Positions 7,356-60,892 of a DNA stretch of 64,000 nt are shown here, one piece after another. The DNA is taken from the IMG/VR virus record IMGVR_UViG_2639763012_000002, positions 29,914-93,913 of that record; one strand, written 5' to 3'. Below the pieces are notes generated by a model. That model saw only the letters and a list, made by a program, of their open reading frames with translations, was not told the origin of the DNA and did not search any database. Each line of letters starts with the position of its first letter. Within the stretch, counting starts at the first letter, position 1. The translations under genes and the position numbers were made by a program. The stretch is from a virus. Lineage: Duplodnaviria > Caudoviricetes.

Positions 7356-7814
7356 ATGTCGAGTCTGAGTCCGCGCGGGACGTATCTCCAGGTCGCCGAT
7401 GCGATTCGTGGGCGGATCGAGGAGGACGAGGAGCTGGTGTGGCTGCCGCCGGTGAGCGCGCTGCGCGCCGAGTGCGGCGGCGTGTCCCGAGGGCTCGTGA
7501 CGCGAGCACTCAAGGCGTTGGAGTCCGAGGGGGTGGTGGTGTCGATGCAGGGGCGAGGGTGGCGTGTGGCTAGGGGGGTGGATCGGCGTCCGCTGGTGGA
7601 GCGGATGCGGGCGCTGTTCTCCGAGGACGGGCTGACGCTGGGGGGCGAGTACCCGAGCGAGGCCGAGCTGGGTGAGCGATTCGGCTACTCGCGGGTGGCG
7701 GTGCGGTCCGCCCTGGCGGAGCTGGAAGGGGCTGGGCTGTTGGAGTCGCGGCAGGGGCATCGGCGGGTGGTGCTGCGGCTGCCGACAGCGGACGGTGACG
7801 GCGGAGTCCGATAG
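7356..7814 (+). CDS. Tandem GntR winged-helix regulator
   Basis: Two wHTH motifs: YLQVADAIR...VSRGLVTRAL and YPSEAELGERFGYSRVAVRSAL. Confidence 0.85.
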   Translation: MSSLSPRGTYLQVADAIRGRIEEDEELVWLPPVSALRAECGGVSRGLVTRALKALESEGVVVSMQGRGWRVARGVDRRPLVERMRALFSEDGLTLGGEYPSEAELGERFGYSRVAVRSALAELEGAGLLESRQGHRRVVLRLPTADGDGGVR

Positions 7815-7945
7815 GGGCGGCGGTCTGACCGCTCCTCGCGGGGATGTTGGCCGGTTGTCGCTACCGCCCTGGTGGCGAGACGCGCCAGGGTGAGGGCCTG
7901 CCAGCGCCCGGGCGGGCGCTGGCAGGCCCCGACCAGAGGAGCAGC

Positions 7946-25598: not shown

Positions 25599-25872
25599 CC
25601 GGACGCCGATGAGTGCCCGCGCGACGCTGGAGGTCATGGTCCGCACGGGCCGGGGCCAGATGACGGTCTGGTCTCCGACCGAGGTCAAGCAGGCGCTCGA
25701 CCGCTACCGGGCTGAGGCGCGGGCCGACGTGCTGGTCGAGCAGGCCGACGAGATGGTGGACGCCTGCCCGGCGCACGGGGAGGCCGAGGAGGCGTGGACG
25801 GTGTGCCACTGCGAGGTCGCCGACGAGATGCGGCGCCTCGCCGACCTGATGCGTCCGGGAGGTGACCGGTGA
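25591..25872 (+). CDS. Hypothetical protein
   Basis: Coupled ORF with C/H cluster. Confidence 0.55.
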   Translation: MANRTPMSARATLEVMVRTGRGQMTVWSPTEVKQALDRYRAEARADVLVEQADEMVDACPAHGEAEEAWTVCHCEVADEMRRLADLMRPGGDR

Positions 25873-26939
25873 GCGCGACGACCAAGATCGAATGGACGGA
25901 CGCTACATGGAACCCGGTGACGGGCTACACGAAAGTCTCCCCAGGGTGCGACAACTGCTACGCGGAGACGCTGGCGGAGCGCTTCCGGGGCACCGGCGGC
26001 CACTACTTCGAGCAGGGCTTCGACGTGACATTGCGGCCGGAAAAGCTGCTGGAGCCGCTGCGGTGGCGGAAGCCGCGCCGGGTGTTTGTCAATTCGATGA
26101 GCGATCTCTTCCATGCCTCGGTGCCGGACGAGTATGTGGCGCGGGTGTGGGCGGTGATGGCCCTGGCCCCGCAGCACACATTCCAGGTGCTGACGAAGCG
26201 GCACGGGCGGCTGCGGGCGCTGCTCAGCAGCCCCCAGTTCCGGGAGCTGTGCGAGGCAGAGTGGAACTGGTTGGTGGGCGACGAGTCCACTCCGATGCCG
26301 CAGTACCGGCGTGACGCGTTCATGCGGCAGTGGTGGAGCGAGTTCTCCAGGCCGTTGCGCAACGTCTGGTTGGGCGTCTCTGCGGAGGACCAGGAGCGCG
26401 CCGATCTGCGGGTGCCGGCCCTGTTGGAAACGCCGGCTGCTGTGCGGTTCCTGTCCTGTGAACCACTCCTCGGGCCGATCGACCTCGAAGGGCCGCTGGA
26501 CGGGCCCGGGACCCGCCGGCAGTTGACGTACTGGCTGACGGGACGCCCCGGGGTCGGGGCGCCGAGCCCGACGCTCAGCGGTGTGGACATGCGGCCCCTG
26601 ACGGTGGGGCCGCGCCTTGACTGGGTGATTGCTGGGGGTGAGTCCGGGCGCGGTGCGCGTCCGATGCACCCCGACTGGGCCCGCCGGCTGCGGGACCAGT
26701 GCCAGCAGGCGGGCGTGCCGTTCCTGTTCAAGCAGTGGGGCGAGTACGTGCCGACTGGCTACCTGGTGATCGGTGGCACGGGCAGCGGCACGCTGGCCTT
26801 CAAGGACCCGGTGGACGAGTTGGGCCACCGGGTGGAGGTGCGGCGCGTGGGGAAGGGGCGCGCTGGCCGTGAGTTGGATGGACGGGTCTGGGACGAGTTC
26901 CCGACCCCGAGCCGGGCGCGCGGGGGTGAGGCGTCGTGA
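25869..26939 (+). CDS. DUF5131 (phage Gp37/Gp68, radical-SAM-like) protein
   Basis: TKIEWTDATWNPVTG.TKVSPGCDNCYAE, FVNSMSDLFH, FLSCEPLLG, WVIAGGESG, FKQWG. Confidence 0.92.
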   Translation: MSATTKIEWTDATWNPVTGYTKVSPGCDNCYAETLAERFRGTGGHYFEQGFDVTLRPEKLLEPLRWRKPRRVFVNSMSDLFHASVPDEYVARVWAVMALAPQHTFQVLTKRHGRLRALLSSPQFRELCEAEWNWLVGDESTPMPQYRRDAFMRQWWSEFSRPLRNVWLGVSAEDQERADLRVPALLETPAAVRFLSCEPLLGPIDLEGPLDGPGTRRQLTYWLTGRPGVGAPSPTLSGVDMRPLTVGPRLDWVIAGGESGRGARPMHPDWARRLRDQCQQAGVPFLFKQWGEYVPTGYLVIGGTGSGTLAFKDPVDELGHRVEVRRVGKGRAGRELDGRVWDEFPTPSRARGGEAS

Positions 26940-27655
26940 GCGTGGAAACCCTCACTGCCGAGCTGCCGGCCGATGTGGAGGCCCTGCGGGAGCTGTGTCT
27001 GGCGCAGCGGGAGCAGCTGCGGCGGCTGGAGCGGGACGCGTTGACGGGGCTGCTGCGGCGTGAGCCCTGGCACGACCGCGCGGAGGCGTGGCTGGCCGAT
27101 CCGGAGACCGGCCCGTGGGCGCTGGCATTCCTGGATCTGGACGGGTTCAAGCCGGTCAACGACCGGCTGGGGCACGCGGCCGGCGACGAGCTGCTGCGCG
27201 CCATCGGTGGCCGCCTCTCCGCGTGGGCCGAGCGGGCGGGCGCTCTGGTTGGCCGGCTGGGCGGCGACGAGTTCGCCGCGCTGTGGCCGTCTGCCGGGCC
27301 GGAGGCGGCCCGAGTGGGGGCGGCCGAGGTGGCGCGGCGCATCGCCGTCCCGGTGCTGCTGACCGGGGACGGGCTGCCGCCTGCTGTGCGCGGCGCCCAG
27401 GTACGGGTGACGGCCTCGGTCGGCGTTGTTCGGCAGGCGGACCATCCGGACGCTGGGCTGGGCGAGTTGCTGGGGCTGGCCGACGCGGCGATGTACCGGG
27501 CCAAGGAGGCCGGCGAGGCCGGCGCTCCGGGGCCCCGGGTGTGGCTGGCCGACCCGGACGTCGCCGCATGGCGCGAGCGGGCTGCCTGCCAGCGGCCGGC
27601 TGGTGAGCGGCGGGCGGGACGGCCCTACCCAGCCCCCACCACCCCGCCCGAATAA
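26936..27655 (+). CDS. Stand-alone diguanylate cyclase (GGDEF)
   Basis: DALTGL, DLDGFKPVNDRLGHAAGD, GRLGGDEF, ADAAMYRAK. Confidence 0.93.
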   Translation: MSVETLTAELPADVEALRELCLAQREQLRRLERDALTGLLRREPWHDRAEAWLADPETGPWALAFLDLDGFKPVNDRLGHAAGDELLRAIGGRLSAWAERAGALVGRLGGDEFAALWPSAGPEAARVGAAEVARRIAVPVLLTGDGLPPAVRGAQVRVTASVGVVRQADHPDAGLGELLGLADAAMYRAKEAGEAGAPGPRVWLADPDVAAWRERAACQRPAGERRAGRPYPAPTTPPE

Positions 27656-29542: not shown

Positions 29543-30187
29543 ATGATGGACGACTACGAAACGCCCGACGCTCTCGAAGCGCTGCTCGACGACCTCCGCC
29601 TACCGGCCGGCGTCCACGCTGCCGTGCTGTCCGATACCAGCGCATACGACAACAGCCTCGTCACGCGCTGCGTGGTGTGGAGCGACCGCCCCGACCGCAC
29701 TTGCCCCATGTGCACGCAGCCCATCAATCAGGACCTGAGCGAGTACTGCCCGGTCGTCCTCGACGGCAGCGCGGCCCCCGCCCCCACGGTGCTGGACCGA
29801 GACCAGGAGCACGGCTGCGGGCACTGGCTGGCCGTCTACACCGACGTCGTGCAGGGCACCGGAGATGAGGGCGAGGTCACCGAGGCCGACGTCCTCGAAT
29901 CCGCGCAGGGGGTTGCTGAGGAGCTGCGTGACCACAAGCAGAGGCTCCACGAAGCGGCGATGCGGAGACTGCACGAGGAGCTGACGGACGTGCTGGAGAG
30001 GCTGGCCGCGCCCCTCGCCCCTGGCGAGACCAGGCGGGAGAGGGAGGAGTCGCTGGTCACTGGCAGCGAGATGTATCCCGGCGCCTTCCGCAACGACGGT
30101 GGCCAGTGGGTCGCCTGGGACTACAACCCCAACCTGCCCGGCGAGATCATCGAGGTTACCGCTGACGCGGACCGCCGGGCGGGCTGA
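29543..30187 (+). CDS. Hypothetical protein
   Basis: GGAGGAG RBS; acidic. Confidence 0.65.
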   Translation: MMDDYETPDALEALLDDLRLPAGVHAAVLSDTSAYDNSLVTRCVVWSDRPDRTCPMCTQPINQDLSEYCPVVLDGSAAPAPTVLDRDQEHGCGHWLAVYTDVVQGTGDEGEVTEADVLESAQGVAEELRDHKQRLHEAAMRRLHEELTDVLERLAAPLAPGETRREREESLVTGSEMYPGAFRNDGGQWVAWDYNPNLPGEIIEVTADADRRAG

Positions 30188-31399: not shown

Positions 31400-31429
31400 C
31401 TGATCATCAGTCCCTGGAGGGATCATGCC
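31400..31429 (+). repeat. Solitary degenerate type I-B-like CRISPR repeat in the cas8 leader
   Basis: CTGATCATCAGTCCCTGGAGGGATCATGCC resembles recalled actinobacterial I-B repeats (GTCCTCATCA.CCCT.GAGGGATCGCAAC); TCCCT-GG-AGGGA stem; TATCCT -10 box at 31390. Confidence 0.5.
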
Positions 31430-31472
31430 TCGGGCTCCAGCCGGTGCCCGTCGTCCCCCTGGGAGCCCTTTC

Positions 31473-32810
31473 GTGACTACTACCACTGTCCTGTCGCTCA
31501 CTCACCACCCCCTCCAGCGTGCTGGCGCATGGGCTGTCACGCACATCGCGGGCCGGTTCCGGCCCGAGGAGGTGTCAGGGGATGACCTGGAGCTGGTCGT
31601 TGGGCTGATCGTCCGAGACGCGACTCGGGCTGCTGTCGCGCCGAAGGACGATGGCCCGGCTGGCTACGACTGGTGGAAGGTACTCTTCGCGCTCTTCCCG
31701 AACTCCAAGCCGACCCACGCCAAGCGCGGCCGGGACCAGGAGGTGATCCGTAGCAAGGTCGCGGCGCTGTTCGCCCCGGACGGCGTCACCGGCCGGTCGT
31801 GGCCGTGTACGTTCTGCGCCCAGATGACGGGCACGGCGTGGGGGAAGTCGAATCTCCCCCTGTTCGACACGTCCAAGGCGTTGAACAACGTGCCGCCGGG
31901 CGTGCCGGGTTGGCCGATCTGCCGTGGATGCCGGGTCGCGATCTGGACCCTGCCCTACGGGGCGTGGGTGACGGCTGGCTCGGCGACGGTTTTCACCTGC
32001 GAGGACGAGGCAGCCGAGCGCCGGTTCGTCGAGCACAGCGTGGCCCGGTCCCGGCGGATCGTCGACGGCGGGTTCGAGGCGCTGGCGGCGGACGGGGTGG
32101 AGGACGGGCCGTTCGCCCTCGCCCTCCAGCAGCTGCGGGATGTCGGGGGCCGGCAGCACGCCGCCGGCGGGCTGGCCAGTTCCACGTTGTGGCGGTTCAA
32201 GAACGACAACGAGGAGCCCTGGCTGCGGGCGTCCTTCACCCGTCGGGCCGTGCCGCGCTTCCTGGCTCTGGTGCAGGGCAACGCGCCGCTGCGGGAGGCA
32301 TGGGCGCTGCTGGAGGAGGCGTTGGTACAGCGGGACCGGCGCGGCAGGGTCGTGGCCAGCGGTGCGGGAGAGGCGGCGCGGCTGGTGTTCGAGGCCGAGG
32401 ACGGAACGAGCCGGTCGTTGCTGTGGGCGTTGCACGAACTACGAGGCTCTGAGCGCCTGACCTCGGCGCAGCGGCACAACATCGCCCGGCTGGCCGGCGA
32501 GTACGGCCGGCATGTACTGGGGATCGATGATGGCAATCTGGCGCCGGCTGCCGAGGTGTTGGCCACGTGGATCTGGCGTGGCGGTCCCGAGGGGCAGCGG
32601 CAGCAGCGGCGGGCGGAGTACCTGGAGGCCGCGCCCAACCCCTACAAGTTGGGGTTGGTGATGATGCGGGCGAACTCCCGGCTGTTCCTGGCCGGTCTGC
32701 CGGTCAGGGCGACGGTGGAGGACTGGCGTCCGCTGCTCCAGTCTGACGCGCGTGCGTGGGCGCGTCGGCTGCTGTTGGGTGCGGCCGTGGATCGGCAACC
32801 CGTCGGCTGA
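31473..32810 (+). CDS. cas8b: Orphan type I-B Cas8b1/Cst1-like (CXXC-CXXC) protein
   Basis: LTHHPLQRAGAW N-terminus, LFPNS motif, WPCTFC...PLF....LNN.P...ICRGC zinc motifs, about 445 aa; recognised by resemblance to actinobacterial Cas8b1/Cst1. Confidence 0.72.
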   Translation: MTTTTVLSLTHHPLQRAGAWAVTHIAGRFRPEEVSGDDLELVVGLIVRDATRAAVAPKDDGPAGYDWWKVLFALFPNSKPTHAKRGRDQEVIRSKVAALFAPDGVTGRSWPCTFCAQMTGTAWGKSNLPLFDTSKALNNVPPGVPGWPICRGCRVAIWTLPYGAWVTAGSATVFTCEDEAAERRFVEHSVARSRRIVDGGFEALAADGVEDGPFALALQQLRDVGGRQHAAGGLASSTLWRFKNDNEEPWLRASFTRRAVPRFLALVQGNAPLREAWALLEEALVQRDRRGRVVASGAGEAARLVFEAEDGTSRSLLWALHELRGSERLTSAQRHNIARLAGEYGRHVLGIDDGNLAPAAEVLATWIWRGGPEGQRQQRRAEYLEAAPNPYKLGLVMMRANSRLFLAGLPVRATVEDWRPLLQSDARAWARRLLLGAAVDRQPVG

Positions 32811-32847: not shown

Positions 32848-32892
32848 TGTAACGTGCCCCCGTTGACTTTCGTAACGGGGGCACGTTACATT
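32848..32892 (+). promoter_or_regulatory. Promoter TTGACT-18-TACATT covered by a 17-bp inverted repeat operator
   Basis: TGTAACGTGCCCCCGTT...AACGGGGGCACGTTACA. Confidence 0.8.
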
Positions 32893-32929: not shown

Positions 32930-33556
32930 ATGACCGACGCCCCCCTCGCCACCGTCACCGTCGCCGACTGGGACGCCGCCGAGGTGTACCTCGCCGAGCA
33001 CACCAGCGACGCCACCTACACCCTCACCGAGCTGACCGCCGCCCACGACGCCGACCTCCACGAGATCCGCCTCGACCCCGAAACCCGCACCATCTGGTGG
33101 GCCTACGACAACGGCCCCGTCCGCGGCAAGGGCTGGACCGTCGACCACCTCACCCCGGCGGCCGCCGCCGAACAGGCCGAGCCCATCATCGACACGACCC
33201 AGGACCGCATGGGCGACCCCGAGGGGTACGCCGGGCAGATCCACCGCCTCGACGACGACCAGGCGCTCCTCGACGAGTACACCGAGATCCTGCGCCTGAC
33301 CCTCCCTGCCGACCCGCAGGCCGCCCGCGCCGAGATCCGCACCCGCCGTGCTCTCGCCGACGCCTTGTGGCAGCGCGCCGACGCCGAGCTGGTCCGCAGC
33401 CTCGCCGGCAGCGACCGGGGCGGCAAGGCCGCCGCCGCACGGACCCTGGGCATCACCCGGATGCAGGTCACCCGTCTCATCAGCGACGACGACAGGCGGC
33501 GGGACGCCCTCACCCAGGCCGTGCGGGAGGCGGAAGCCGACTACCCCGACCGCTGA
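32930..33556 (+). CDS. Acidic N-domain plus C-terminal HTH protein (Acr-Aca fusion-like)
   Basis: GGAGG RBS; GGKAAAARTLGITRMQVTRL HTH. Confidence 0.75.
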   Translation: MTDAPLATVTVADWDAAEVYLAEHTSDATYTLTELTAAHDADLHEIRLDPETRTIWWAYDNGPVRGKGWTVDHLTPAAAAEQAEPIIDTTQDRMGDPEGYAGQIHRLDDDQALLDEYTEILRLTLPADPQAARAEIRTRRALADALWQRADAELVRSLAGSDRGGKAAAARTLGITRMQVTRLISDDDRRRDALTQAVREAEADYPDR

Positions 33557-33585
33557 TCGACCCAGCCGCGCCGCGCTATAGTGCT

Positions 33586-33615
33586 AACCTCATCGCCCCT
33601 ACGAGGGGACCCCTG
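33586..33615 (+). repeat. Solitary type I-B-like CRISPR repeat unit
   Basis: AACCTCATCGCCCCTACGAGGGGACCCCTG; 21 contiguous nt match the recalled Streptomyces-type I-B repeat GTCCTCATCGCCCCTACGAGGGGTCGCAAC; TATAGT -10 box at 33577. Confidence 0.65.
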
Positions 33616-33666
33616 CCAGCCAGCCGTGGCCCATGGTGCGCCACGGCCGACCGACGGACGGCCCTC

Positions 33667-35115
33667 GTGCACTACGGCGACCGCGACGGATACGGCCAGT
33701 ACGGCATCCTGGACGACGACGGCGAGCGGGTGCTGTGCCACGAGTGCGGGCGGCGCTACCGCCAGCTCCCGTACCACATCAATCGGGCGCACGGGATGAC
33801 GGCAGTCGAGTACCGGGCAGCCCACGGCCTGAGCGTGACGCAGCCGTTGGCGTCCGACAGCCTGACGGCGACGCAGCGCGCCAACTCCACCAGGGTCTAC
33901 GCCCAACGCCCCGACATCCGGGCCATGCTCGCCGACGCGCTGAGCCGGGGCTGCTCCGCGGCGGCGTCCCGGGCTGCGCAGGCCGCCGCGCCGGACTCCC
34001 TCGCCCGTGCCGCCGAGCGGCATCGCCGCCGGGTCGCATCTGCTCGCCTGGCGGAGCGCGAGCGGGCCGCGAAGCGGCGCAGGCTCGACGAGGCCGCCCG
34101 GGCTCACGGCTATGCCGATATCGACGCGTGGCTGACGGATCACGCGGATCTCACCGCCAGCCAGATCAGGGAGGTGCTGGGGGTGTCGGGGGCAGCGGCG
34201 CGCGAGTTGCGGCGTGGCGTGGTCAGCGCGCAGCGACCAAGCGCGCTGGCCAAGGAGCGCGCCATAGATAGGGTGATCGATGGCGAACAGCTCAGGGCCG
34301 TGGCCCCAGACGCAGGAGTGGGCCCGGATGCACTGCGGGCGTGGGTAGTCGCCTCCCCCCAGGGCGTGGCAGCAGCCACGGCGGCCGGCTACGCGGACGC
34401 GGGCACATGGCTCACTGAACGCTCCCGTGTGAACGCCGATATGCGCCGGGCTGCTGTAGATGTCGTCAGCGGCGGAGAGTCCAAAGCGGCGGTGGCTCGA
34501 CGGCTCGGCGTCAGCGATGTGGCTGTGGGGAAGTGGGTTCGGGCTGCGGGCCACCGTCAACGCCTGGAGCCGGGGATCGACACAACGCCCCAATCCACTC
34601 CTCCAGCGTCGACTCGGGAGGTCGAGCGGCAGCGCGCGTACGACGAGATCCGCCGCCTGTGGCTCACCGGCATGACGCTCCAGCAGATCGGGCTGCAGGT
34701 CGACCGATCCCCGTCTAGCGTGTCCCACGCCGCGCGCCGCCTCGGCCTGCCCCCGCGCCTCACACGGGCATCGGACGAGTCGATCCAGCGGGTGCGCGAG
34801 CTGTGGCCTGACAGGTCGCTCACCACGGACGAGATCGCGCGCCAGGTGGGCGTCTCGCGTGCGTCGGTCTCCTACATCGCCCACCAACTGGGGCTGCCCC
34901 GCCGTCGCGCAAAAGAGCGACTGCGCGGTGAGCAGCTACGGACGGCCCGCGCCCGGCTGCCCGAGCTATGGATGGACGAGTCCCTGAGTCTGCCGGCCAT
35001 CGCTCAGCGGCTCGGGGTCGGCAGCTCACCGACCCTGTCCAGGTGGGCGCGCGAGATGGGCCTCCCGCCAAGGAGTCGGGGGCGGAAACGGCCGCACCCC
35101 AAGAGTGATCGCTGA
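33667..35115 (+). CDS. ROS/MucR-type zinc finger plus multiple tandem HTH protein
   Basis: VLCHECGRRYRQLPYHINRAHGMTAVEYRAAHGL followed by about 5-6 HTH units (e.g. KAAVARRLGVS, LQQIGLQVDRS, DEIARQVGVS, PAIAQRLGVG). Confidence 0.75.
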   Translation: MHYGDRDGYGQYGILDDDGERVLCHECGRRYRQLPYHINRAHGMTAVEYRAAHGLSVTQPLASDSLTATQRANSTRVYAQRPDIRAMLADALSRGCSAAASRAAQAAAPDSLARAAERHRRRVASARLAERERAAKRRRLDEAARAHGYADIDAWLTDHADLTASQIREVLGVSGAAARELRRGVVSAQRPSALAKERAIDRVIDGEQLRAVAPDAGVGPDALRAWVVASPQGVAAATAAGYADAGTWLTERSRVNADMRRAAVDVVSGGESKAAVARRLGVSDVAVGKWVRAAGHRQRLEPGIDTTPQSTPPASTREVERQRAYDEIRRLWLTGMTLQQIGLQVDRSPSSVSHAARRLGLPPRLTRASDESIQRVRELWPDRSLTTDEIARQVGVSRASVSYIAHQLGLPRRRAKERLRGEQLRTARARLPELWMDESLSLPAIAQRLGVGSSPTLSRWAREMGLPPRSRGRKRPHPKSDR

Positions 35116-35702
35116 CAGACGACGTCGCACTCGTCGACCTCCTGGTCCACTGGATCGAGCAGCCGGAGGACCAGCGGGAGCGGGTGACGCGGATGTCGGA
35201 GCTCGTGGGCGCCCTCCCCACCCGCAGCGCCTCGGAGCGGCTCCTGCGGCGCGTGCGCGACGAGGCGCCCGCTGACGCCGTGGCAGCCTGTGCGGAGGAG
35301 ACGCGCGAGCGGGCGGCCCGCAGGGCGCGGGGGGAGAGGAATCCTCCCGTGCCCGGTCGGGGCCGTCGGGCCGCGGTCGCCCGTGTCATCAGGCAGACCG
35401 ACCGCAACATCCGGAACCTCTACGAGGCGCAGCTGGCCGCCCGGGCGGAGGCGCGCGAGCCGCGCCGCCTCCGTCCGCCGGATGACGCCTACGCGATGCT
35501 GCCCGACGCCCAGGCCGCGGTGGACGAGGTCAGGCGAGCCCGGGACGCCTACTACGCGGCCATCGCCGACGCCCTGCCGCCCCACACCGCGGGGACCCGG
35601 CCCAGCGGGGCCGACGCTGCCCGCTTCGCCGAGGTGCGGTCGGTCACCGGCCTTGATCCCGCGCACCTACGACGCATCCAGCGCACCGTCCACGCCCGTT
35701 GA
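35112..35702 (+). CDS. Hypothetical helical protein (start uncertain: CTG 35112 or GTG 35184)
   Basis: Frame open from the CTGA overlap with the upstream stop; possible C-terminal HTH (VRSVTGLDPAHLRRI). Confidence 0.55.
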   Translation: MTDDVALVDLLVHWIEQPEDQRERVTRMSELVGALPTRSASERLLRRVRDEAPADAVAACAEETRERAARRARGERNPPVPGRGRRAAVARVIRQTDRNIRNLYEAQLAARAEAREPRRLRPPDDAYAMLPDAQAAVDEVRRARDAYYAAIADALPPHTAGTRPSGADAARFAEVRSVTGLDPAHLRRIQRTVHAR

Positions 35703-35777
35703 ATCACACAGAGTGGGTAGCACGGCGGCAGCCCGGCCGTTATCGTGTGGGGCACGCCCGCTGAGCGGGTTGAGACC

Positions 35778-35908
35778 CTTTTCCCCGCATGAGCGGGGGT
35801 GAGCCCACGTACAGCTACTCGCATACGTGTAGCCCCTCGTGGTCCCCGCGCCAGCGGGGGTAACCCAGCTGCGGTCTCTTGTGTCCCCGCGCAAGCGGGG
35901 GTGACCCT
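35778..35908 (+). CRISPR. Degenerate type I-E mini-array, 3 repeats (29 bp), spacers 32 and 12 bp
   Basis: R1 35778-35806 CTTTTCCCCGCATGAGCGGGGGTGAGCCC; R2 35839-35867 GTGGTCCCCGCGCCAGCGGGGGTAACCCA; R3 35880-35908 TGTGTCCCCGCGCAAGCGGGGGTGACCCT. Confidence 0.88.
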
Positions 35909-35922
35909 ATTCTCGCCTCCCT

Positions 35923-36543
35923 GTGATTGCCGTGTATCGAGTCCTGTACGACCTGCCGTCCCTGGGGTACCTGCGTCCGTCCGAGGTGTGGCGGGGCATC
36001 ACCTCCCGCGTGCCGACGGAGCACACGGAAGCGTCTGAGGGCCCGCGACTGCTCTGGCGTCTGGAATCCCCCACAGAACTCCTGGTCCAGTACCCTGTGC
36101 GCCCGGACCCCACATGGCTGCTACCGGGCGCGCGCAGCCGTCCCAAGGCGTTCGCCATGCAGCAGCTCATGGATTCGCTGGCCGCCGGCCAGCGGTGGGA
36201 CTTCGTGTTGGCCGCCAACACGGTCCGCCGATCAACCGGACGAGCACGTGCCCGGCAGGCGCAGGCCCAACGGGTGTCGGCACGAGAGTGGCTCACAGGT
36301 GAGACGGATGTGGATGCTGACAGCGGCACGTCCCGCGCGTACCAGTCCGGATTCCGGGTGCTGGCAATCGCCGAGACCACTCAGCGCCGCGGCGGCCCGC
36401 GCCAGGCGCACTTGGTGCGCATCACAGGTCGCCTGGAGGTTGAGGACACCGAGGCGCTGCAAGCCGCCCTTGAGGAAGGCATTGGCCGAGGGAAGGCCCA
36501 GGGGGCCGGGATGCTATCCCTCTCCCCGCTACCGCGGGGTTGA
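35923..36543 (+). CDS. cas6e: Orphan type I-E Cas6e (Cse3/CasE)-like protein
   Basis: LLWRLE...LLVQ...PDPTWL, GQRWDFVLAANTVR, GRLEVED..AL..AL.EGIGRGKAQGAGML G-rich loop. Confidence 0.9.
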   Translation: MIAVYRVLYDLPSLGYLRPSEVWRGITSRVPTEHTEASEGPRLLWRLESPTELLVQYPVRPDPTWLLPGARSRPKAFAMQQLMDSLAAGQRWDFVLAANTVRRSTGRARARQAQAQRVSAREWLTGETDVDADSGTSRAYQSGFRVLAIAETTQRRGGPRQAHLVRITGRLEVEDTEALQAALEEGIGRGKAQGAGMLSLSPLPRG

Positions 36544-36658
36544 TCCAAGTTCCGGGTTGGCCACCTGTGGTGGCTTGCACTGAATCCCCGCGTGCGCGGG
36601 GATGCCCCGATGAGGATGCCGTGGACACCACGGCCCCTGCATACGCGGGGAGAGATCA
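36519..36658 (+). CRISPR. Second degenerate type I-E mini-array, 3 repeats, spacers 33 and 20 bp; first repeat overlaps cas6e 3' end
   Basis: R4 36519-36547 CCTCTCCCCGCTACCGCGGGGTTGATCCA; R5 36581-36609 TGAATCCCCGCGTGCGCGGGGATGCCCCG; R6 36630-36658 ACGGCCCCTGCATACGCGGGGAGAGATCA. Confidence 0.75.
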
Positions 36659-36687
36659 ACGAGACCCCGGCCACGCCGGGGTCTCGT
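36659..36687 (+). terminator. Hairpin closing the array/cas6e unit
   Basis: ACGAGACCCCGGC-CAC-GCCGGGGTCTCGT. Confidence 0.65.
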
Positions 36688-36722
36688 CGTGTCCCGCTCG
36701 GTCGGCTGGGCACAATGCCGAG

Positions 36723-37439
36723 GTGACGATCAACACCATCCCCGGCCGCACCCTGTCCGCCTCCGTGCTCGCCACGGTCCTCACCCTGACCGCCGTGGCA
36801 TGCACGGAAGCTGACGACGCGGCAGCCGACACCAGTACCAGCGGCAGCCCCAGCGCGCCGGCCGACGACGCCAACCCGCCAGCCGACGACGGTTCCGACG
36901 CGGGCGGCACCGAGGCCGGGGACGCGCTCGCCCTACTCGCCGAGCTGGAGGTCGCTGCCGAGGACCGCACCGGCTACGACCGTGACCTGTTCGACCATTG
37001 GTCCAGCCAGGGCAACAACTGCAACACCCGCGAGGCCGTCCTCGCCCGCGACGGCCAGGACGTCGAGACCGACGACCAGTGCCGCGCCACCGCCGGCACC
37101 TGGGAGTCCGTCTACGACGGAGAGACCTGGACGGACGCCGCCGACCTCGACATCGACCACGTCGTGCCGCTCGCCGAGGCATGGGACTCCGGCGCCGACA
37201 CCTGGACCGACGAAGAGCGGGAGGCGTTCGCCAACGACCTCGACGGGCCGCAGCTGCTGGCCGTCACCAGCAGCGTCAACCGCGCCAAGGGCGACAAAGA
37301 CCCTGCCGAATGGATGCCGCCGCTGGAGTCGTACCACTGCACCTACGCCGCGGACTGGATCCAGGTGAAGCACGACTACGGCCTGGCCGTCGACCAGGAC
37401 GAGCACGACGCCCTGACCGGCATCCTGGAGAGCTGCTGA
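36723..37439 (+). CDS. Secreted lipoprotein HNH endonuclease (DUF1524-like)
   Basis: Lipobox LTAVAC; GYDRDLF.HW, CNTRE.VL.RDG, DIDHVVPLAEAW.SGA, NRAKGDKDPAEW. Confidence 0.9.
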   Translation: MTINTIPGRTLSASVLATVLTLTAVACTEADDAAADTSTSGSPSAPADDANPPADDGSDAGGTEAGDALALLAELEVAAEDRTGYDRDLFDHWSSQGNNCNTREAVLARDGQDVETDDQCRATAGTWESVYDGETWTDAADLDIDHVVPLAEAWDSGADTWTDEEREAFANDLDGPQLLAVTSSVNRAKGDKDPAEWMPPLESYHCTYAADWIQVKHDYGLAVDQDEHDALTGILESC

Positions 37440-60044: not shown

Positions 60045-60892
60045 CAGGCGGCCCTCCCCGCACCGGCGTCGACCAGTTCCCGGGACTCGGCTGGCGGCGG
60101 CGTCAGCGCCTCGTAGGTGTTGCCGGCGCTGGCGTGCATCCACTTCGTGGTTTCCAGCGCGCCACGGAACGCCCGCCACGCCCGCCGGTCACCCGGCATC
60201 GGCACCAGCGCCCGCGACCGGCGCCGCAAGTTCAAGATCCCGGTGCGGGCCACGGCCGGCACCGCCATCTCGGAGTCGTCCGGCAGCAGCACGGTCTCGG
60301 CGTACCGCAGCGCGGCCAACTGCATGGCCTGCTCGGGGAAGACCTGCTTCGCCGGCCGCTTCGCCGACGTCTTGTAGTCGATCAACCACAACTCCAGCGA
60401 CCAGCCAGGGCCTGTGGGCAGCCAGATCAGGCAGTCTCCCGTGCCGGCATAGCCCAACGCCCTGTGCAGGAACGTCATCTCGGCGGCCTCAATGTGCCGA
60501 TCGAGATCGACTCCCCAGGACTCCCACCAGCGCGCCAACTGCCGCGCGTACGGGTCCACCTCGGGATCCGGCGGGTACGGGGCGCCCAGCGCCATCATGT
60601 GCGCCCGGTGGTGGATGCGCGTACCCAGATCGGCCGCGCTCTCCCGTGCGTCCCGGTGCACCTTCTTGATGTCCTTCAGCAGCTCCGCGCGGTCCCGCAG
60701 CGCACGCCGCGCCACGGTCAGCCGGTTGTTCACGCAGTACTCGGCCGTGACCTTCACGGCCCACGGAGTGATCGCGTGCTTCGCGACCCCGGTGGACAGC
60801 ACGTTGGTGACGGACACCAGGTCCGGGCCGCCCTGCGGGTCCTCGTAGTAACGCCCGTTGTCGGTCTCCCGGGCCCACCTCGGATCGGTCAC
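60044..60892 (-). CDS. PD-(D/E)XK RecB/RecE-like phage exonuclease
   Basis: SVTNVL, GTRIH, GYAGTGD, IDYKTS, QLAAL. Confidence 0.88.
   Translation of the reverse strand: MTDPRWARETDNGRYYEDPQGGPDLVSVTNVLSTGVAKHAITPWAVKVTAEYCVNNRLTVARRALRDRAELLKDIKKVHRDARESAADLGTRIHHRAHMMALGAPYPPDPEVDPYARQLARWWESWGVDLDRHIEAAEMTFLHRALGYAGTGDCLIWLPTGPGWSLELWLIDYKTSAKRPAKQVFPEQAMQLAALRYAETVLLPDDSEMAVPAVARTGILNLRRRSRALVPMPGDRRAWRAFRGALETTKWMHASAGNTYEALTPPPAESRELVDAGAGRAA

Follow-up and report, generated by a model that had tools for sequence, protein, structure and literature searches.

Why should a phage-derived stretch of DNA carry one copy of a CRISPR repeat (clustered regularly interspaced short palindromic repeat), placed in the gap in front of a regulatory gene, in a bacterium that has a CRISPR-Cas system of its own? 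The question is raised by a 64,000-nt stretch (positions 29,914 to 93,913) of IMG/VR virus record IMGVR_UViG_2639763012_000002, hereafter the window, whose numbering (64 kb) is used for all coordinates; the genome that holds it is G000, and other G numbers denote genomes of the same family. The element, a solitary repeat unit (SRU) of 30 nt, has the sequence of a type I-B repeat in the sense of a CRISPR RNA (crRNA). We put at roughly 0.5 the probability that it is an RNA decoy against type I-B CRISPR immunity, of the kind described as RNA anti-CRISPRs (Racr). This reading draws on the identity of the repeat, its solitary state and sense orientation, the mobile context, a host of the same CRISPR subtype, self-targeting, neighbours that resemble anti-CRISPR (acr) genes, and conservation; transcription, binding and cleavage by Cas6, and inhibition are steps that we infer.

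That the unit is a CRISPR repeat at all was proposed in an earlier sequence-only reading of this DNA, which described an intact CCCCT-ACG-AGGGG stem and a diverged 3' handle. Real arrays uphold both points. The core pattern CTCATCGCCCCTNNGAGGGG, searched with at most 1 mismatch in 401 genomes of the same family, is present in 23 of them, and in 9 it forms arrays of 17-84 copies with a period of 65-68 nt. Positions 3-23 of the SRU (33588-33608) agree with the array consensus of G225 and G026 at 21 of 21 positions, loop included, and with the consensus of 9 further array genomes at 18-20 of 21. Compared with the G225 and G026 repeats, the first 2 nt and the last 7 nt have diverged. In a real repeat, the TAGCAAC stretch at this end supplies the greater part of the 8-nt 5' handle with which the next crRNA begins; the SRU is identical to the arrays at 1-2 of these 7 positions.

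The arrays that carry the mimicked repeat stand beside genuine type I-B genes. In G134 the repeat is GTCCTCATCGCCCCTGCGAGGGGTAGCAAC, its orientation fixed by a conserved leader before both arrays, and degenerate repeats occur at the array ends. One strand between the two arrays carries cas3, cas5b, cas7 (Cst2/DevR), a large-subunit gene and cas6, and the opposite strand carries cas4, cas1b and cas2; the profile scores are 168 bits for cas7 Cst2/DevR (cut-off 72.75) and 305 for cas1b (cut-off 304.1). This locus is type I-B.

The likeness might nevertheless be coincidental, and the unit a plain DNA operator, with CCCCT-N3-AGGGG as its inverted repeat, or a generic hairpin of a 5' untranslated region. 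It lies just 3' of a -10-like box and beside genes for DNA-binding proteins, and Aca-type (anti-CRISPR-associated) regulators bind inverted repeats in acr promoters, according to the accessible part of PMC13551039. However, the non-palindromic flank CCTCATCG is conserved as well, within the 21 positions shared with real repeats. A 21-nt pattern with at most 3 mismatches is expected by chance 0.01 times per window (1/100 shuffles), and the reversed core pattern, used as a control, matched twice in the 401 genomes, whereas the forward one has 1-4 copies in 14 of them. We therefore consider an operator or generic hairpin very improbable; judged from its sequence, the unit is a real solitary type I-B repeat that has lost its 3' handle.

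The SRU is not part of an array, having no spacer, no leader and no neighbouring copy. The window holds no further copy, and the 100-nt region is without a second one in the G000 genome. The arrays of the host lie on another contig and their repeat differs. The SRU is on the strand of the flanking genes, so that its transcript would be in crRNA sense. Searches of the SRUFinder type, as set out in the accessible part of PMC10651486, look for a match to a known repeat, no further repeat within 100 bp, an intergenic position and a mobile carrier, and all of these are found here. Racr candidates are also expected to have a promoter at most 250 bp upstream; here that stretch offers TATAGT, 6 nt away and without a -35 element, and a fuller promoter-like site lies about 700 nt away.

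Table 1. Features of the window that bear on the solitary repeat, in window coordinates.
Feature	Position	Strand	Description
Viral Cas8b homologue, 461 aa	31425-32810	+	Two genes (0.8 kb) upstream of the SRU; without acidic C-terminal tail
Upstream gene, 220 aa	32894-33556	+	G+C at third codon positions (GC3) 0.96; weak Fis-type helix-turn-helix (HTH) at the C-terminus (HTH_8 E 0.0097, below cut-off)
-10-like hexamer TATAGT	33577-33582	+	6 nt (33583-33588) 5' of the conserved repeat core, which starts at 33589; putative promoter activity
SRU, AACCTCATCGCCCCTACGAGGGGACCCCTG	33586-33615	+	30-nt equivalent of the actinobacterial type I-B repeat, crRNA sense
Repeat hairpin CCCCT-ACG-AGGGG	33596-33608	+	Stem CCCCT 33596-33600, loop ACG, AGGGG 33604-33608; presumed Cas6b binding element
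Diverged 3' end	33609-33615	+	ACCCCTG where arrays have TAGCAAC; 1-2/7 identical to 11 array consensus sequences
Second hairpin GCCGTGGC-N9-GCCACGGC	33623-33630/33640-33647	+	8 bp; in the leader of the downstream gene
MucR/Ros zinc-finger and multi-HTH gene, 482 aa	33667-35115	+	PF05443 (ROS_MUCR) E 6e-10; several HTH families
Type I-E-like mini-array	35779-35909	+	Three repeats CCCCGC-N4-GCGGGGGTNACCC, spacers of 32 and 12 nt; 2.2 kb downstream of the SRU
Orphan Cas6e homologue	35923-36543	+	PF08798 E 7e-25; directly 3' of the mini-array
Protospacer	60176-60214	not assigned	Perfect match to spacer G000:C23:399937-399975 of host type I-B array 2

How might such a unit act? The 5' flank and the hairpin of a repeat form the 3' handle of the crRNA, the part held by Cas6. 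The SRU keeps what Cas6 needs, the flank and the hairpin, and has lost what Cas5 and Cas8 need, the handle: it is without the last 7-8 nt, which would seed their binding to the next RNA. As a decoy, it would be transcribed in crRNA sense, either from the -10-like box, so that the RNA would start almost directly with the repeat, or as part of a transcript that runs on from the upstream gene. The hairpin of this RNA would bind the Cas6b of a type I-B host and would probably be cut at the 3' base of the stem. Nothing downstream would be built into Cascade, because no proper 5' handle follows. The RNA would then act as a sink that competes for Cas6b and, given a longer RNA on its upstream side, for Cas7 too.

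The surroundings of the SRU favour an anti-CRISPR role. By gene content the window is phage-derived: terminase, portal and tape-measure genes lie within 20 kb to its left, and both sides of the SRU have PHROG matches to early genes (replication initiator, polynucleotide kinase, RuvC-like resolvase, HNH, exonuclease). Streptomyces phages SF3 and VWB come closest; a Gp3-like protein is 54-55% identical to proteins of theirs. Chromosomal genes of the ordinary kind begin again about 2 kb to the right of the window. The prophage ends were not found: all 10 matches to tyrosine integrases fall on other contigs, a tRNA is lacking, and att-like direct repeats do not exceed 14-17 nt. The region may be one large prophage or a pair of neighbouring elements.

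The host has a type I-B system of its own, apparently intact. G000 has one cas1, and beside it stand cas6, a large-subunit gene, cas7 (Cst2/DevR), cas5, cas3 and cas1b, all of them open frames; three arrays lie on the same contig, C23. Genes for MADS (MAD2, MAD5) and a PglX-like methyltransferase adjoin this cas locus (L005 700-9800; G000:C23:379.7-388.8 kb), a defence island. From the three arrays we extracted 42 spacers, one of which matches the prophage itself; it is the fifth from the leader end of the array that adjoins the cas genes. The match is 36/36 by blastn (60176-60211) and 39/39 when the true repeat boundary is used, and it falls at the overlap of the gene for the Gp3-like protein (phrog_16191, E 1e-111) and the exonuclease gene. 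For the other 41 spacers, no match in the rest of the genome reaches 28 nt. A lysogen that has an intact CRISPR system and a perfect spacer against its own prophage is a classical predictor of a prophage-borne inhibitor. With a perfect self-targeting spacer and an intact-looking type I-B system, such an inhibitor is predicted here.

The prophage offers a candidate protein for the same task. The Cas8b homologue upstream of the SRU (Table 1) has no Pfam, NCBIfam or PHROG match; its identity to the resident large subunit, encoded between cas6 and cas7, is 57% (E 1e-163), and it is the sole extra homologue of any resident Cas protein in G000. It shows 51-59% identity to the Cas8 proteins of 13 of the 401 genomes, roughly equidistant from them, with the resident Cas8b closest; for the Cas8 that goes with the mimicked repeat the figure is only 27-32%. 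Past alignment position ~439 it has 22 residues, versus 55-69 in 12 of 13 Cas8 proteins from cas loci. We regard it as a candidate Cas-derived anti-CRISPR.

A further CRISPR-derived part lies downstream, where a type I-E-like mini-array, with repeat starts 61 and 41 nt apart, is followed by an orphan Cas6e. This is the only Cas6e above cut-off in G000, and no other I-E component of the genome scores above cut-off. Catalytic His26 of T. thermophilus Cse3 aligns with its Trp23, and this His is kept in all 12 bona fide Cas6e from I-E loci that were compared; the orphan thus has the look of an inactive enzyme. Its only close relative, in G134 (L041 9320-10104; 48% identity), also has Trp, and two I-E-like repeats precede it. 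The genome contigs searched held no relatives of the orphan Cas6e locus, and the sole match of I-E-like spacer S1 in G000 is the spacer itself. On the decoy reading, the SRU would be one of several tools in a counter-defence cluster, together with the truncated Cas8b homologue, which would be directed at the resident I-B lineage, and the inactive-looking Cas6e with its I-E-type mini-array. Together they could explain how the prophage coexists with a perfectly matching host spacer.

Several observations weigh against the SRU as a decoy, and the heaviest concern the host. The resident repeat, in leader-defined orientation, is GTCCTCATCAACCCCGGAGGGTTCGCAAC. It shares with the family of the SRU the GTCCTCATC start, the GCAAC end and a 5-bp stem, but the stem sequence differs and the loop has 4 nt. 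The match to I-B repeats claimed by the sequence-only reading holds for the arrays of relatives; to the repeat of the host the SRU is identical at only 13 of 29 positions, with the CCTCATC flank in common and the stems different. A mimic of the resident repeat is rejected on this count, and the SRU evidently copies a type I-B repeat lineage other than the resident one. In the same vein, the Cas6 enzymes of four genomes with the mimicked repeat share only 32-37% identity with the resident one (G000:C23:391128-391832), no copy of the resident repeat lies outside the CRISPR loci in G000, and G028, though it keeps the SRU, yielded no Cas6 homologue when the resident Cas6 was used as query. It could also be that the self-targeted prophage is protected by the Cas8b homologue alone, or that the protospacer is without a protospacer adjacent motif (PAM). 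Regarding the latter, the array-3 query against phages found one weak protospacer (33/37), so no PAM can be derived.

The site itself adds further doubts. TATAGT has no -35 match, and this is why a simple sigma-70 consensus scan made no promoter call there. RNA starting at about 33588-33590 would reach the hairpin after some 7-10 nt, too few for a Cas7 filament, so that only Cas6 could be titrated, unless the SRU is carried on read-through RNA from the promoter-like site at 32863-32892. The whole 87 nt are as stable as shuffles (z -0.14), the repeat hairpin is weak and the region unremarkable in structure. The decoy may serve against other hosts of the phage and the Cas8b homologue against the resident lineage, or the SRU may be a leftover. 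The mismatch between mimicked and resident repeats poses the question of how broad Cas6b recognition is within one repeat family.

Relatives of the locus bear on whether the SRU is a leftover. G028 has the only close homologue of the MucR/HTH gene (46-51% identity) and, at the same place, the block CCTCATCGCCCCTCCGAGGGGAACCC, behind which stand a hairpin with another sequence and the start codon; the GTG of the MucR/HTH gene aligns with the ATG of its homologue. The 28-nt block is identical between G000 and G028 at 26 of 28 positions, whereas elsewhere the intergenic sequences align poorly. A block so well kept between strongly diverged flanks argues for continued selection. Upstream of the homologous gene, G028 has psiR1, whose hairpin is intact and whose 3' end is GTAGCAAC, then a spacer of 33 nt, and psiR2 (CCTCATCG and hairpin, 3' end diverged). 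This is a repeat-spacer-repeat mini-array with decayed outer halves, in the layout of crRNA-like regulatory RNAs (Cracr/CreA).

The SRU could thus be a relic: an ancestor would have had repeat-spacer-repeat before the MucR/HTH gene, and G000 would have lost the first repeat and the spacer and kept a decaying second repeat without function. G028, which still has all three parts directly 5' of the gene, speaks for such a descent, as does the lack, in G000, of psiR1 or any handle-like sequence 35-45 nt upstream; the SRU also does not fit the resident repeat, and viral mini-arrays (Cracr) have been described, including type I-B and Actinomycetota, in the accessible part of bioRxiv 10.1101/2024.10.29.618823 (Liu et al.). 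Against it stand the 26/28 identity amid diverged flanks, the rare -10-like box exactly where the spacer would be, and a third copy borne by a mobile genetic element (MGE), on the 84-kb IMG/VR contig L089, which is likewise solitary, 8 nt past a stop codon, with a diverged 3' end. In the three MGE-borne copies, in G000, in G028 (psiR2) and in L089, it is selectively the 3' handle end that is lost, which speaks for the decoy. On balance a relic seems unlikely, though not far-fetched.

The complete repeat-spacer-repeat of G028 would also suit a guide-forming element, which would turn neighbouring phage sequence into a spacer, to be loaded by host Cas6/Cascade against related elements or host genes. 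In G000, though, the downstream RNA would bear ACCCCTG and not the conserved handle, and no upstream repeat could supply one. Nor was a target of the G028 spacer found: in the collected loci and G000 its best non-self match is 23/33, and no cas promoter was among the matches. We give this reading very little credence.

Similar units occur elsewhere, in diverse settings. Among GTDB representatives, the pattern plus a non-T base occurs in 62 stretches, and 25 of 158 matches have at most 1 neighbour copy. A host type I-B operon in L125 has a repeat-like unit, its 3' end diverged, in the gap that separates cas7 from cas5 (7796-7825), which suggests Cas6 processing of the cas mRNA itself. A degenerate second copy in G000 (G000:C16:239773-239792; L048 ~1498), with 1 core mismatch and one stem mismatch, lies behind a stop codon and in front of a GC-rich hairpin, a GAGGAGG site and an open reading frame (ORF) of 313 aa that starts with GTG and has no Pfam match; a tyrosine-integrase match is 15 kb away. 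Stand-alone repeat-spacer-repeat units of the same repeat family are present in G240 (L057) and G023 (L059), with 35-nt spacers that begin alike (GTCTGAC). The G240 unit has a TATGGT box and a hairpin with a T-run (terminator), the G023 unit lies between cas6 and cas4-cas1, and both look like crRNA-like regulatory RNAs. Several more single copies are found in ordinary chromosomal contexts and are possibly array debris or chance matches.

The units within operons lead to another reading, in which the SRU is a Cas6-cleavable leader. Cas6b would cut the mRNA, freeing the 5' leader or parting the upstream genes from the regulator, and the stability or translation of the MucR/HTH mRNA would depend on the Cas6 of the host. 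The SRU does lie in a 110-nt leader, 58 nt 5' of the start codon and followed by a hairpin and a ribosome-binding site (RBS), an architecture kept in G028 with another hairpin sequence. The L125 unit in its I-B operon and the G000:C16:239773 unit, with its hairpin, RBS and ORF, suggest that such units are used within mRNAs. The mismatch with the resident Cas6 and repeat, however, tells against a cleavable leader just as it does against a decoy, and the proposal is compatible with a decoy role; we hold it to be quite unlikely. Cas6 remains on its product in several systems. In a more specific and distinctly doubtful form of the idea, the SRU would be a sensor: the Cas6b cut would give a hairpin-capped mRNA with a 5'-OH and so couple the expression of the island regulator to the CRISPR activity of the cell. 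It is equally doubtful that, within this scheme, the parts of the island are divided among targets, the truncated Cas8b acting against the resident I-B system, the repeat decoy against a second I-B lineage, and the inactive Cas6e with the I-E mini-array against type I-E.

The 110 nt of the gap run from the stop of the 220-aa gene (33556) to the GTG of the MucR/HTH gene (33667) and hold, in order, TATAGT, the 30-nt unit, an 8-bp hairpin, a purine-rich stretch and the start codon. The sequence-only reading had pointed out a -10 box at 33577, a hairpin at 33623-33647 and a zinc-finger/multi-HTH gene behind it, and all three are in place: the hexamer has the sequence given, the hairpin folds at -16.8 kcal/mol (z -1.77 vs shuffles) and the gene product has ROS_MUCR and HTH matches. 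TATAGT is one of 5 hexamers in the window, on both strands, that match TATAAT at at least 5 of 6 positions with A2 and T6; at 71% G+C, the window has few AT-rich hexamers. The repeat hairpin folds at -7.4 kcal/mol (z -1.26 vs shuffles). As the hairpins and the leader remain within the shuffle range, structure alone is no finding. An ordinary terminator is rejected for both hairpins, which lack a T-run and drew no call in the scan. An Rfam search of 33450-36000 (E <= 10) gave four chance-level matches and no CRISPR-DR family for the SRU or the I-E-like repeats. Farther upstream, the promoter-like TTGACT-18-TACATT at 32863-32892 lies directly 5' of the 220-aa gene, ~700 nt 5' of the SRU, and the transcript of that gene could read through the SRU.

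The MucR/HTH protein is a candidate regulator of the locus, possibly Aca-like; the accessible part of PMC13551039 mentions no MucR-type Aca. The CasPR family does not apply to it, since CasPRs, as far as their accessible description goes, carry CapR and AP2 domains. It has relatives in 3 of the 400 other family genomes, of which G028 alone matches over most of the length; the other two hold the MucR/HTH domain internally, so their upstream regions are not comparable. Viral contigs and metagenome contigs gave no relatives of the protein, and in plasmids (10 records) and phages (4 records) the matches cover its N-terminal domain only. Other cargo of the window includes a gene for a secreted-looking GmrSD_C (DUF1524-type) nuclease (36540-37439, +), overlapping the cas6e gene at its end, a gene for DUF5131 (Gp37/Gp68) that is fused in an operon with one for a GGDEF diguanylate cyclase (25869-27655, +), and an IS605-type TnpB (899-2107, -).

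If the decoy reading is true, the locus holds a type I-B RNA anti-CRISPR in an actinomycete phage, beside a Cas8b-derived protein and a dead-looking Cas6e with a mini-array. Endogenous type I systems serve genome engineering in actinomycetes, and inhibitors of type I-B would for this reason be of practical weight. The locus is also a clean natural test case, in which the removal of single prophage parts should unleash self-targeting. Viral SRUs as RNA anti-CRISPRs, viral cas homologues and viral crRNA-like RNAs are already known, and the SRU is a further case of these. The points of interest are type I-B in an actinomycete prophage, a self-targeted lysogen, the position in the leader of a regulator gene, and three CRISPR-derived parts that would act against two CRISPR types. 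Neither Streptomyces-type I-B anti-CRISPRs nor a locus like this one in Streptomyces-like phages turned up in our literature search; it may already be listed in the SRU tables of PMC10651486 (GTDB prophages).

How, finally, does the SRU compare with known systems? With the genuine Streptomycetaceae-like type I-B repeat GTCCTCATCGCCCCTNNGAGGGGTAGCAAC it shares positions 3-23 and the same strand sense relative to transcription. It belongs by sequence identity to the actinobacterial GTCCTCATCG...GCAAC type I-B family and lacks the conserved 3' end TAGCAAC of that family. Among viral CRISPR-derived proteins, the nearest parallels are AcrIB3, a Cas5 homologue, and AcrIB4, a homologue of the Cas8b C-terminus, viral orphan cas genes that are proven type I-B anti-CRISPRs in the accessible part of bioRxiv 10.1101/2023.06.24.545427 (Katz et al.). 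Like them, the gene at 31425-32810 encodes a prophage-borne I-B subunit homologue outside any cas operon; unlike AcrIB4, which matches the last 90 residues of Cas8b only, its product, as read from the DNA, is near full length without the C-terminal tail. This likeness concerns the neighbouring gene and not the RNA element. As for the crRNA-like mini-arrays of the viral Cracr and host CreA/CreR kind, in which the spacer between psiR1 and psiR2 is expected to match a cas or toxin promoter in part, the homologous locus of G028 (psiR1-spacer-psiR2) and the stand-alone units of G240 and G023 resemble them, whereas the SRU of G000 is the second repeat half only, with no spacer and no first repeat, and so cannot guide Cascade.

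The closest comparison is with Racr (RacrIF1, RacrIC1 and others; Camara-Wilpert et al. 2023, PMC10651486). As far as the accessible part of that paper goes, RacrIF1 acts via a 70-76-nt upstream RNA coated by Cas7f, the lack of a usable 5' handle makes it inhibitory, and Racr candidates cluster with acr genes. Like these elements, the SRU is a single intergenic sense repeat in a prophage, with a promoter-like box near it, a host of the same CRISPR subtype, no usable 5' handle, and candidate protein anti-CRISPRs nearby. It differs from RacrIF1, whose 70-76 nt carry the Cas7f filament, in its very short 5' extension. Unlike the Racr examples, it is type I-B and actinobacterial, mimics a repeat lineage that is not the resident one, and would double as the leader of a regulator gene.

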